Notes: generated from the sequence alone by a model not told the origin. Shown: positions 19,669 through 24,210, numbered from the stretch's first letter. The stretch is 64,000 nt of DNA from a candidate division WOR-3 bacterium (GCA_965649165.1 CBFGJT010000006.1:1592-65591), one strand, 5' to 3'. A program made the numbers and translations.

Positions 19669-19696
19669 TTGACATATTGACCGATTTGATTAATAT
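19669..19696 (+). promoter_or_regulatory. Sigma-70-type promoter of asnA
   Basis: TTGACA 19669-19674, 16-nt spacer, TAATAT 19691-19696. An AGGAG Shine-Dalgarno sequence lies 7 nt before ATG 19747. Confidence 0.45.
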
Positions 19697-19746
19697 GTAT
19701 ATATCATTTACCCGTGTAACTTACAAAAAAACAAAGGAGTTATGCT

Positions 19747-20991
19747 ATGTTGAAGAAAAAGGCGAAAAAGACGGTCAAAAGGGTGGCAAAAAAACCGGCG
19801 GCTAAAAAGGCACCGAAGAAAACTGCCACCCGAAAAAAAACGGCCCGTAAGCTAGACCTCCTTGCCCAGAAACGGGCAGACCTTGCCGGTCCTGGTGTCG
19901 GCACATATGAAGAGGTGGAAAAAATTCTGCCGTCCGACTACCGGCCGTTGCTGCCGCCGCTGCAGCGGATGGACGCCCTGTTTGCGGTCAAGGAGTATAT
20001 CGAGAAAAACCTCTGCCGCGAACTCAATCTCCATATGGTCCAGGTGCCGCTGATTGTCGAACGCGAGTCCGGGGTCAACGACTATCTTGACCGCGACGGC
20101 TCGCGCACTCCGGTTGAATTCCCGTGCGGTCTCGGAATTTCACCGCGTATCAATGCTCAGATTGTTCAGGCTGCCACCAAATGGAAGCGGCTTGCCCTAG
20201 CCCAGTTTGGCTGCAAGGTTGGTGAAGGGATTTGTACTGATATGCGGGCAGTGCGCAAGGACTACTTCCTTGATCATGACCACTCCTCCTATGTTGACCA
20301 GTGGGACTGGGAGAAGGTAATCACCGCGGAAGACCGCAACCTCGAATATCTGAAGGATACTGTAAGAAAAATCTGGAAGGTGATTGTTGGTGCCGCTCAC
20401 CTGGTGCAGGAAAAATTTCCCGCACTGCGCACTGATAAATATCCCCCGATTCCTGAGGAACTGATGTTCATCCATGCGGAGGAAATTCTTGAGCGCTATC
20501 CGGACCTCCCCCGCAAACAGCGGGAGACCAGACTGCTACAGGAGGTTGCGCCGGCGGTGTTCATCATCGGCATCGGCTATCCGCTCAAGGATGGTCTGCC
20601 GCATGAAATGCGCGCTGCTGATTATGATGACTGGATTACCGATACCTCCCACTGGACCGGCAAGGAAACCCACGGATTGAACGGTGACATCCTCGTTTGG
20701 AACCCGGTTACCCGGCGCCGGCACGAACTGACCTCAATGGGCATCAGGGTAACCAAGGAAACGCTGGTCCAGCAGCTGAAAATGGCCGGACAGGAACACT
20801 TCCTGAAACTGCCTTATCATCAGGCGATTTTGAACGACCGAGTACCGCTCTCAATCGGGGGGGGCATCGGTCAGTCGCGCACCTATATGTATCTGCTGCG
20901 CACCGCAGCGCTGGGCGAGGTTTCGGTTACCGTCTGGCCCAAGGTGCTTAAGGAGATGTGCGCCAAGCGCAACATTATCTTCCTCGAATAA
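19747..20991 (+). CDS. asnA: Aspartate-ammonia ligase (asparagine synthetase A) with lysine-rich N-terminal extension
   Basis: AsnA motifs DQWDWEKV, LNGDILVWNPV, SMGIRV and GGGIGQSR. The first 35 aa contain 15 K and 3 R. Confidence 0.9.
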   Translation: MLKKKAKKTVKRVAKKPAAKKAPKKTATRKKTARKLDLLAQKRADLAGPGVGTYEEVEKILPSDYRPLLPPLQRMDALFAVKEYIEKNLCRELNLHMVQVPLIVERESGVNDYLDRDGSRTPVEFPCGLGISPRINAQIVQAATKWKRLALAQFGCKVGEGICTDMRAVRKDYFLDHDHSSYVDQWDWEKVITAEDRNLEYLKDTVRKIWKVIVGAAHLVQEKFPALRTDKYPPIPEELMFIHAEEILERYPDLPRKQRETRLLQEVAPAVFIIGIGYPLKDGLPHEMRAADYDDWITDTSHWTGKETHGLNGDILVWNPVTRRRHELTSMGIRVTKETLVQQLKMAGQEHFLKLPYHQAILNDRVPLSIGGGIGQSRTYMYLLRTAALGEVSVTVWPKVLKEMCAKRNIIFLE

Positions 20992-21010
20992 ATCGCTTTA
21001 AAAAGAAAAA

Positions 21011-21036
21011 GCCGGCACCCGGGTGCCGGCTTTTTT
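21011..21036. terminator. Bidirectional rho-independent terminator
   Basis: Stem GCCGGCAC/GTGCCGGC flanked by an A-run (21006-21010) and TTTTTT (21031-21036). Confidence 0.7.
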
Positions 21037-22766: not shown

Positions 22767-24110
22767 CTAACCGCTCAGTTCCCGGCTCAGTTTATCAAGG
22801 GTGGATGCAAAGGCAGGGTCGCGAGCTTTCAGTTCAGCTATCTTATCAAGGGCGTGCATAACGGTTGTGTGATCCTTACCGCCGACCAGAAATCCAATGT
22901 CCTTAAGTGAAAGGTTGAGCAAGTTTCGCAGCAGATACATTGTGGTCTGCCGGGCAAGCGCCACCCGTTTGGTGCGGATCGGGCTCTTGATATCTACGAC
23001 CGGCACGTGAAAATGTTCTGCAACGGCATTGATGATACGCTGGGCATCAAGCGGCTGTTCGGGCAACACCAGATCCTTAAGCGCCTCATCGGCAAGCTTG
23101 GTGTCCAGCGCTCGGCCGGTCAGTGAATGGAGTGCTATCAGGCGCACAAGCGTCGCTTCAAGCGTGCGGATGTTGGAGCGGACCCTAGCTGCGATGTATA
23201 CCGCAATTTCTTCAGGAAGGTCAAATTTCTCCAGTTTTGCCTTCTGGAGCAAGATTGCCACCCTGGTTTCCAGGTCCGGCGGCTGGATGTCAACGACAAG
23301 CCCGCTGCCGAGCCGGGAAATCAGACGCTCTTGGAGCGTGGGGATGTCTTTGGGTGGACGGTCACTGGTAAACACAACTTGGCTGCCCGCATCCTGAAGT
23401 GCATTAAAGGTATAAAAGATTTCTTCCTGAAGGCTTTCCTTGCCCACGAGGTAATGGATGTCATCAAGCAGCAGCAGGTCCAGCCCGCGGTATTTGTTCT
23501 TAAACTCCACCCGAGTGTTTTTCCCGATCGCCTGGATCAGCTCCAGAAACAAAGCTTCGGCTGGTGTATAGCAGAACCTCAGACCAGGATAGATTGTGAG
23601 TGCGGCGTTCCCGATCGCCTGGAGCAGATGGGTCTTGCCCAGCCCGACTCCGCCGTAAATAAACAGCGGGTTATATGCCCGGCCCAGGTTCTGAGCAACA
23701 TTTTTGGCTGCAGCGCAGGCGAGACGGTTGCCCTCACCGATAATGAAGCTATCAAAGGTGTAGCGCGCCCGCAGCCGGTAGGGCGGGGTTTGAACTGGTG
23801 ACCCTAACTGCTCCGGTGATTTTGCCGGCGGTTCTGATACCGATTGCCCGGTGACAACAAACTCGACTTTGAGGTTTCTTCCCGTGATCTCTTTTAATGC
23901 TAGGAGCAGGTCTGAAAGGTAGTGATGCTTAAGCCAGTCACAGAAAAAACTGTTTGGGACCCCCACCCGGATGACCCCATCAGTGCACTCGACGAGACAG
24001 GTTGGTTTCAGCCAAGCCTCAAACGCTTCAGAGGCAACCCTTGATTTCAACAAACCAAGAACCGAACCCCAGAGATTTTCAACACCCGCACTCATAGACA
24101 AAAAAACCAC
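22767..24110 (-). CDS. dnaA: Chromosomal replication initiator protein DnaA
   Basis: 447 aa. Walker A GGVGLGKTHLL, Walker B LLLLDDIH, and a C-terminal HTH with GGKDHTTVMHA. The start is either GTG 24110 or ATG 24095. Confidence 0.95.
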   Translation of the reverse strand: MVFLSMSAGVENLWGSVLGLLKSRVASEAFEAWLKPTCLVECTDGVIRVGVPNSFFCDWLKHHYLSDLLLALKEITGRNLKVEFVVTGQSVSEPPAKSPEQLGSPVQTPPYRLRARYTFDSFIIGEGNRLACAAAKNVAQNLGRAYNPLFIYGGVGLGKTHLLQAIGNAALTIYPGLRFCYTPAEALFLELIQAIGKNTRVEFKNKYRGLDLLLLDDIHYLVGKESLQEEIFYTFNALQDAGSQVVFTSDRPPKDIPTLQERLISRLGSGLVVDIQPPDLETRVAILLQKAKLEKFDLPEEIAVYIAARVRSNIRTLEATLVRLIALHSLTGRALDTKLADEALKDLVLPEQPLDAQRIINAVAEHFHVPVVDIKSPIRTKRVALARQTTMYLLRNLLNLSLKDIGFLVGGKDHTTVMHALDKIAELKARDPAFASTLDKLSRELSG

Positions 24111-24125
24111 AAATTTTCTTCATAT

Positions 24126-24210
24126 TTATCCACATGTTTTTCCACACGCACTCACTTCGTAAAATCTGTACATAAAATAACATACACAGCCAGCGCCCGG
24201 AGTTTCCACA
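24126..24210. promoter_or_regulatory. DnaA-box cluster upstream of dnaA
   Basis: A perfect TTATCCACA at 24126-24134, TTTTCCACA at 24138-24146 and GTTTCCACA at 24202-24210. Confidence 0.6.

Follow-up and report, generated by a model that had tools for sequence, protein, structure and literature searches.

Why should an enzyme of asparagine synthesis begin with some 40 residues that resemble the tail of a histone H1? The question is raised by asnA in a stretch of 64,000 nucleotides from a candidate division WOR-3 bacterium (GCA_965649165.1 CBFGJT010000006.1:1592-65591), which is called the window here and from whose first letter all positions given without a contig are counted. The gene (19747-20991, plus strand, 414 codons and a stop codon) encodes an asparagine synthetase A (AsnA), the aspartate-ammonia ligase (EC 6.3.1.1) that forms asparagine from aspartate, ammonia and ATP. 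AsnA is a paralogue of the catalytic core of the class II aspartyl- and asparaginyl-tRNA synthetases (AspRS and AsnRS), and the AsnA fold is seen in the structures 11as and 12as. A sequence-only reading of the window had drawn attention to a lysine-rich N-terminal extension of this protein. Several questions follow. How much of the extension is peculiar to this lineage? Is it translated, and is it kept by selection? What could it do on such an enzyme? Judged from the comparisons described below, its lysine-rich part is very probably a real tail, translated, selected and disordered, on an active AsnA.

The enzyme and the two parts of its extension

AsnA is the sole domain found in a domain search of the 414-residue protein, and the identification made in the sequence-only reading is borne out by two family models and two structures. 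PF03590 matches residues 77-322 (5.6e-79, 265.5 bits against a gathering cut-off of 27), and the NCBIfam equivalog TIGR00669 is matched over positions 14-325 of its 330 at 296.5 bits, which passes the cut-off of 292.8 by a narrow margin. The closest solved structure, a 345-residue asparagine synthetase (9v83_A), aligns with query residues 59-412 (2e-80), and Escherichia coli AsnA (11as_A) aligns through its own residues 12-325 with query residues 78-404 (2.9e-70). The blocks YVDQWDWE, TKWKR, AADYDDW, LNGDILVWNP, SMGIRV and GGGIGQSR of the E. coli enzyme are kept, identical or nearly so. Those that bind substrate or nucleotide (QWDWE, the R of ALR/AVR, SMGIRV and GGGIGQSR) are conserved with respect to both 11as_A and 9v83_A, and their columns are invariant in an alignment of 40 homologues. 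By all these sequence matches the protein is an AsnA. Since the catalytic blocks are identical or nearly identical and invariant among the homologues, we infer that the tailed enzyme would have the standard AsnA chemistry. The core, placed at residues ~57-414 (19915-20988, plus strand) by the same alignments and models, is the whole core of bacterial AsnA (11AS/12AS, 9v83), aligned end to end.

What precedes the core is composite. The sequence-only reading had counted about 70 extra residues, which is close to the ~66 found relative to E. coli AsnA, but only residues 1 to ~40 turn out to be lineage-specific. Residues 42-65 (KRADLAGPGVGTYEE...LP.DY; in the window KRADLAGPGVGTYEEVEKILPSDY, 19870-19941, plus strand) form an almost invariant motif that is common to thousands of untailed AsnAs of ~376 residues; its invariant columns in 40 sequences are K42, D45, L46, A47, G48, P49, G50, Y54, L61, P62 and Y65. 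Among the 120 best homologues of 8000 scored, which are 77-100% identical to the query, every one has the motif (D/K)K.ADLAGPG(V/I)(S/G)TY.E directly before the part that aligns with AsnAs in general, and most are ~376 residues long and begin just 6-10 residues before ADLAGPG. The nearest untailed orthologues (~376 residues) align from query residue ~38-41, the AsnA of PDB entry 9v83 aligns already from residue 59, and ordinary AsnAs start at query residue ~55-60, as seen in the best 150 of 2466 representatives at 50% identity. Since the motif is present in untailed AsnAs, residues 42-65 are a feature of the subfamily and the tail consists of residues 1-~40 only. Compared with the E. coli and 9v83 enzymes, then, the window protein adds 40 polycationic residues and the ADLAGPG motif of ~18 residues. 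In a monomer model made with AlphaFold2 the motif has low confidence.

The subfamily is itself unusually conserved. Its ~376-residue members are labelled WOR-3, Eisenbacteria, Zixibacteria, Ignavibacteria and Caldithrix by their sources, and identity between bins labelled as those five groups is 77-82%, whereas the DnaA of the same relatives falls to 48-57%.

The tail (residues 1-40, 19747-19866, plus strand) was delimited by composition, predicted structure, substitution rates and a tree. Its first 35 residues (MLKKKAKKTVKRVAKKPAAKKAPKKTATRKKTARK) contain 15 K and 3 R, a count already given in the sequence-only reading, and residues 1-40 comprise 15 K, 3 R, 8 A, 4 T, 2 P and 1 D, with a net charge of +17. 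The composition over the tailed orthologues is 38% K, 14% A, 9% V, 9% P and 8.5% T, with D and E together below 2%. The tail falls among KPAA-type low-complexity sequences, being rich in K, A and P with very few acidic or aromatic residues, and its peptide has only a loose KK-x-x spacing and is not a tandem KPAA-like repeat. Tandem Repeats Finder detected no DNA repeat in it at a score of at least 30, and an origin from tandemly repeated DNA was rejected for want of any repeat. In the AlphaFold2 model (40-sequence alignment, predicted template-modelling score 0.79), residues 1-35 have a predicted local distance difference test (pLDDT) of ~30-33 and no secondary structure; no DSSP element occurs before residue 38, and residues 38-47 form a weak helix. 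The tail is predicted from this model to be intrinsically disordered. Its composition and predicted disorder give it its likeness to the C-terminal domain of histone H1 and to KPAA-type polycations.

The isoelectric point rises from 6.3 without the tail to 9.4 with it, and the core has a mean net charge of -4.0 in tailed and -4.7 in untailed enzymes. Neutralisation of the tail in cis by a more acidic core was rejected, the core charge being the same with or without a tail; because the core does not neutralise it, each subunit would be strongly basic. When the entire 1.37-Mb assembly, which is 76% complete, was scanned in six frames, no comparable basic stretch appeared in other open reading frames (ORFs) of at least 60 residues, and among 1218 ORFs of at least 200 residues no C-terminal 30-residue stretch exceeded +11. 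The AsnA tail is the most extreme basic stretch of this genome, so that a genome-wide habit of basic tails was rejected here; AsnA alone stands out.

Translation, selection and distribution of the tail

Is the tail made at all? Orthologous asnA loci were extracted from 20 related genomes, 18 of which have the tail, so that the extension is far from absent among close orthologues; the 18 span at least 12 genera of one family of the GTDB, called f1 here. In all 18 the first in-frame ATG lies 5-9 nt after AAGGAG or AGGAG and leads directly into the lysine-rich stretch. In the window this Shine-Dalgarno sequence, read directly as AAGGAG at 19734-19739 (plus strand), has its GGAG ending at 19739 and stands 7 nt before the ATG at 19747, just as the sequence-only reading had placed it. 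The consensus-like promoter mentioned there was likewise recovered, as a sigma-70-like TTGACA-16-TAATAT at 19669-19696 (plus strand) that matches 10 of 12 positions in a consensus scan.

It could be imagined that the start is mis-assigned, that translation begins downstream and that the tail is never made, since there are an in-frame GTG at codon 13 and a methionine codon, Met74, at 19966. The latter is the internal Met near 19965 that the sequence-only reading had named as a possible start; initiation there would remove residues 42-73, and with them the invariant ADLAGPG...LP.DY block, which excludes Met74 as the start. Upstream of the motif just two further in-frame candidates exist, TTG (codon 2) and GTG (codon 13); each would keep the K-rich tail, and there is no other ATG, GTG or TTG between codon 13 and the motif. 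Conservation of a Shine-Dalgarno sequence and ATG just where the tail begins, seen in 18 orthologues, speaks against a downstream start, as does the purifying selection on the frame, and hardly any likelihood is left to it.

The tail is variable in sequence and steady in character. Its length is 26-50 residues and its net charge +10 to +20 in every tailed orthologue, and identity to the window protein falls to 33-59% in the tail against 75-81% in the core. The ratio of non-synonymous to synonymous substitution rates (dN/dS) is 0.06-0.23 for the tail versus 0.015-0.05 for the core in close pairs with dS of 0.26-0.89. Its frame is open throughout the orthologues, and all differences in length are in-frame. 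Purifying selection thus acts on the tail in this frame, if with a 5-10-fold relaxation relative to the core. Across these orthologous sequences it is shown that selection preserves how long and how lysine-rich the tail is and lets its sequence drift. The expectation that the tail is translated finds its support in this selection together with the conserved Shine-Dalgarno sequence and ATG.

However, is it lysine that is selected? An A-rich, weakly structured 5' coding region might be kept because it boosts initiation, the lysines being a by-product. The window tail would suit such selection on the mRNA, as it has 9 AAA and 6 AAG codons with runs of A7 and A8 and a G+C content of 0.48 versus 0.56 in the core. 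In six orthologues (L010, L012, L016, L018, L019 and L020), however, lysine is encoded by 14-16 AAG versus 1-3 AAA, with 1 AAA to 16 AAG at the extreme, and these tails have no A-runs and are equally basic. Because these six use almost only AAG, the conserved feature is lysine rather than an A-rich mRNA. The dN/dS of the tail below 0.25 and a 5' region that is not unusually unstructured (folding z-score -2.0) point the same way, and selection on the mRNA is very unlikely to explain the tail.

Where did the tail arise? In a maximum-likelihood tree of 132 distinct AsnA cores, 26 of the 27 long tails fall in one clade, with a support of 90 in the Shimodaira-Hasegawa-like approximate likelihood ratio test (SH-aLRT); P0007 represents a single secondary shortening inside this clade, and P0047 an independent long tail outside it. 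A separate clade of 14 has a shorter K-rich N-terminus (MAKKAKAEIKKTGKE-ADLAGPG), and the scattered P0108, P0092 and P0069 carry K-rich N-termini of their own, so that the N-terminus of the subfamily must have turned basic more than once. Among 272 genomes of the phylum, full-length matches (from residues 1-14 onward, without stops) were found only in f1, and in the wider AsnA family no K-rich N-terminus was found among the best 150 of the 2466 representatives at 50% identity, many of which are fragments. Judged from tree and searches, the long tail appears to be essentially a single-clade feature, restricted to a single GTDB family of WOR-3-type bacteria.

Within the family the AsnA tree deviates from the genus assignment (compared at loci L005-L009, of genomes G008, G021, G005, G007 and G003). 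The enzymes of genus g3 (G008 and G021) are 89-90% identical to that of the window, whereas those of G003, G005 and G006, genomes of the same genus as that of the window, are only 76-78% identical to it. For DnaA the trend is slightly reversed (71% for G008 versus 72-73% for G003, G005 and G006), which suggests that the tailed asnA has been exchanged within the family, or that rates are uneven.

What the tail may do

Any function has to be seen against the asparagine supply of these bacteria. AsnRS scores above the cut-off in 37 of 41 relatives and is missing only in incomplete assemblies, including that of the window genome; AsnRS and AspRS are separate genes elsewhere in the genomes. AsnB is absent from all genomes searched, and GatB, which 14 of the 16 genomes of the sister families f2-f5 have, is missing from every one of the 25 f1 genomes. 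With neither AsnB nor GatB, AsnA is the only visible asparagine source in the family, and this gene context is consistent with an asparagine-synthesising role. The sequence-only reading had pointed to a lack of AsnRS, GatCAB or AsnB as informative. Part of this was found, since GatB and AsnB are missing in the family, and part was not, since AsnRS is present; the result does not discriminate for the tail. A link of the tail to loss of the tRNA-dependent asparagine route, which fits at the level of the order, was rejected because it dissolves at the level of the class, where f12, f13 and most of f14 have no GatB either and their AsnAs are untailed or short-tailed. GatCAB loss thus follows the presence of AsnA, not of the tail. 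What is robust is the familiar pattern of AsnA in the absence of GatCAB, and this has no particular bearing on the tail.

Tails of this kind, disordered and rich in lysine, are known both from eukaryotic synthetases and from bacterial proteins that bind DNA or RNA. KPAA/H1-like tails also occur on HupB of mycobacteria and TopA of actinobacteria. The disordered KPAA-repeat domain of Pseudomonas AlgP is needed for even spacing of polyphosphate granules, and a fragment of its C-terminal domain and KPAA peptides bind DNA in vitro (PMC9239181); the disordered KPAA region of PhaF binds RNA directly (PMC12818456). The AsnA tail shares with these two a K/A/P/T-rich composition, predicted disorder and its position as a terminal appendage on a folded domain, and in AlgP/PhaF-type tails, too, composition is conserved and sequence is not. 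It differs in being N-terminal, ~40 rather than ~150 residues long and not built of regular repeats, and also in its cargo, which is a metabolic enzyme and not a protein associated with DNA, RNA or granules. No homology can be detected; the likeness is one of convergent composition only.

On the strength of composition, predicted disorder and this analogy, tethering to a polyanion is the most plausible function. The proposal is that a catalytically standard AsnA has been fused to a family-specific disordered polycation of ~40 residues, which would act as an arm and attach, by charge and without specificity, to a polyanion of the cell, with RNA, ribosomes or nucleoid DNA as the likeliest partners. 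As a dimer, if it forms one like E. coli AsnA, the enzyme would hold out two such arms of about +17 each. Binding would park AsnA on the polyanion and leave its chemistry unchanged, much as AlgP and PhaF are tethered by their KPAA-type tails and eukaryotic LysRS by its lysine-rich appendix. To nucleic-acid tethering as the job of the tail we give a probability of 0.45-0.5. Several points weigh against this proposal. It is not evident why the cargo, a soluble enzyme of metabolism, should need to be attached to a nucleic acid. The alignment behind the AlphaFold2 model is shallow (40 close sequences), so that low pLDDT is only soft evidence for disorder. The tail dN/dS is 5-10 times the core value, so that the constraint is compositional and modest. 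Two f1 genomes (G011 and G019) have untailed AsnAs, which branch among untailed sequences, and the tail must be dispensable in some backgrounds.

How do other functions compare? Second choice after tethering is an aid to solubility or folding (an entropic bristle or an RNA-assisted folding tag) or a near-neutral expansion of K-rich sequence, with no role in localisation. It is a possible reading, though clearly a less probable one, and it draws on the conservation of composition rather than sequence, on the K-rich N-termini of varied length that arose several times on this AsnA subfamily, and on the shortened tail of P0007 and the two f1 genomes without a tail. Moreover, passenger proteins fold better in bacteria when the lysine-rich, RNA-interacting domain of LysRS is fused to them (PMC7262357). 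Neutrality, however, is at odds with a dN/dS well below 1 and with a charge held at +10 to +20 over at least 12 genera and at saturated dS, and as for solubility, thousands of other lineages evidently have a soluble and working enzyme with no tail. The polyanion could also be a different one, namely polyphosphate granules or the anionic inner face of the membrane: a polycation binds any dense polyanion, and the H1-like tail of AlgP places that protein on polyphosphate granules (PMC9239181). Such a target is improbable here, since the tail has no hydrophobic or amphipathic segment for membrane insertion and the polyphosphate kinase PPK1 (TIGR03705) is absent from 15 of the 16 f1 genomes searched, six same-genus genomes of 91-99% completeness among them, which disfavours polyphosphate, although PPK2 was not searched for.

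The closest analogy in enzyme architecture is with the class IIb synthetases. In human LysRS a disordered N-terminal domain rich in lysine binds tRNA (PMC6213541), and the appendices of eukaryotic LysRS, AspRS and AsnRS are, like the AsnA tail, lysine-rich, N-terminal to a class II-type core and disordered when free (PMC6213541). On this model the tail would be a convergent tRNA-binding arm that holds AsnA on tRNA(Asn), AsnRS or the translation machinery, with newly made asparagine channelled into charging. The paralogy of AsnA with the class II AspRS/AsnRS core is in its favour, as are the N-terminal position of the appendix, the same as in the eukaryotic enzymes (PMC6213541), and the fact that AsnA followed by AsnRS is the sole visible route to Asn-tRNA in f1. 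However, the eukaryotic appendix folds into a helix on tRNA, whereas the AsnA tail is interrupted by prolines (2-6 of them in 17 of the 18 tails) and is predicted to form no helix in residues 1-35, amphipathic or otherwise. The eukaryotic host enzymes use tRNA, whereas AsnA has neither a tRNA substrate nor an anticodon-binding domain. In the same family a transketolase, an enzyme unrelated to tRNA, has a similar basic tail, and f12, f13 and most of f14 lack GatB with AsnAs that are untailed or short-tailed. The comparison with class IIb tRNA-binding helices offered by the sequence-only reading is not supported in view of these differences, and a tRNA-binding arm is an unlikely explanation of the tail.

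The asnA locus and other basic tails

Counted from the promoter-like site, the 5' untranslated region of asnA is ~40-45 nt long, and a search against Rfam (E up to 1) found no leader or riboswitch in it, sub-threshold matches falling only on the terminator hairpin. This G+C-rich hairpin with flanking A and T runs (21006-21035) is an intrinsic terminator usable in both directions. The genes upstream of asnA are divergent and those downstream convergent, which, together with its own promoter-like site and Shine-Dalgarno sequence and the closing hairpin, makes asnA a self-contained unit. An out-of-frame mini-ORF of three codons (ATG CTA TGT TGA, 19742-19753) overlaps the asnA start codon; it is identical only in the three closest genomes and is probably insignificant. 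Further downstream lies dnaA (22767-24110, minus strand), with a perfect DnaA box at 24126-24134 and one with a single mismatch at 24138-24146 upstream of it, and the cumulative GC skew has its minimum at ~24-28 kb of the window. As these three coincide, the replication origin is probably near dnaA, 3-4 kb from asnA. Proximity to the origin was rejected as part of the tail feature, because asnA and dnaA are linked only in the four closest genomes.

Other basic sequences occur in the genome and the family. The f1 transketolase (in the window genome, G000, on contig C12:6545-8683, plus strand; loci L021-L034) has a basic disordered C-terminal tail; G010 and G014 have strongly AKKP-rich versions of it and G012 and G013 mixed ones, whereas it is weak in G001 and in the window genome, where it reads ...RKRTSTTRKPRAKKEKSE; sister-family transketolases end right after ...AKELYDFVKK, without a basic tail. 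The only other AKK-type stretch in the window genome belongs to a small, apparently unannotated gene outside the window (contig C7:8954-9082, minus strand) for a free polycationic peptide of 23 residues (MACMKRTAKKTAKKTVKKTAKKK). It has a TTGACA-type promoter, a Shine-Dalgarno sequence (AAAGGAGG) and a terminator hairpin (GAAGGGGGC-loop-GCCCCCTTC) followed by the T-rich TTTTAT. Versions of 21-28 residues with the grammar MAC(M/A)KR..KKTAKKTAKK and the same Shine-Dalgarno sequence and terminator occur in 8 genomes of three f1 genera (g1, g3 and g6; loci L035-L042), with weaker DNA matches in further genera. The amino-acid grammar of the peptide matches that of the AsnA tail, and the peptide may be a small protein of the ribosome or the nucleoid. 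On the minus strand of contig C19, an in-frame K/R-rich stretch (KSSRKRRRKKWAAKKVRQKQKPRRKKRKNS) directly upstream of the pth start MTIFGLGNPG is either an N-terminal extension of peptidyl-tRNA hydrolase or an out-of-frame reading of the neighbouring gene. A 31-residue ORF on contig C10 (plus strand, offset ~51145; MPCGRKRKLRKVKRHKFKKRRKALRHKKKIR) resembles ribosomal protein bS22.

A broader scheme, speculative and in our judgement doubtful, would join several of these elements. Short H1-like tails would serve in this one family as address tags by which selected soluble metabolic enzymes, namely AsnA and to a weaker degree transketolase, are parked on the nucleoid, on RNA or on ribosomes; the free 21-28-residue peptide (MACMKR-KKTAKKTAKK...) would occupy these sites alongside them or in competition with them. 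The AsnA tail would then be a convergent re-invention of the class IIb arm on a tRNA-independent paralogue, which would keep the sole asparagine source beside the translation machinery.

What would the tail mean for these bacteria? Lysine-rich disordered tails are not known to have been described for a bacterial enzyme of amino-acid biosynthesis; a full-text literature search for AsnA with a lysine-rich N-terminal extension found no paper. If the tail is only a solubility bristle, it would be a curiosity of one uncultured family, and the enzyme ordinary. If localisation to nucleic acid holds true, the tail would be a ready-made tag of 40 residues, and AsnA would offer a simple natural case in which a bacterium with a small genome arranges its metabolism in space by means of charge.

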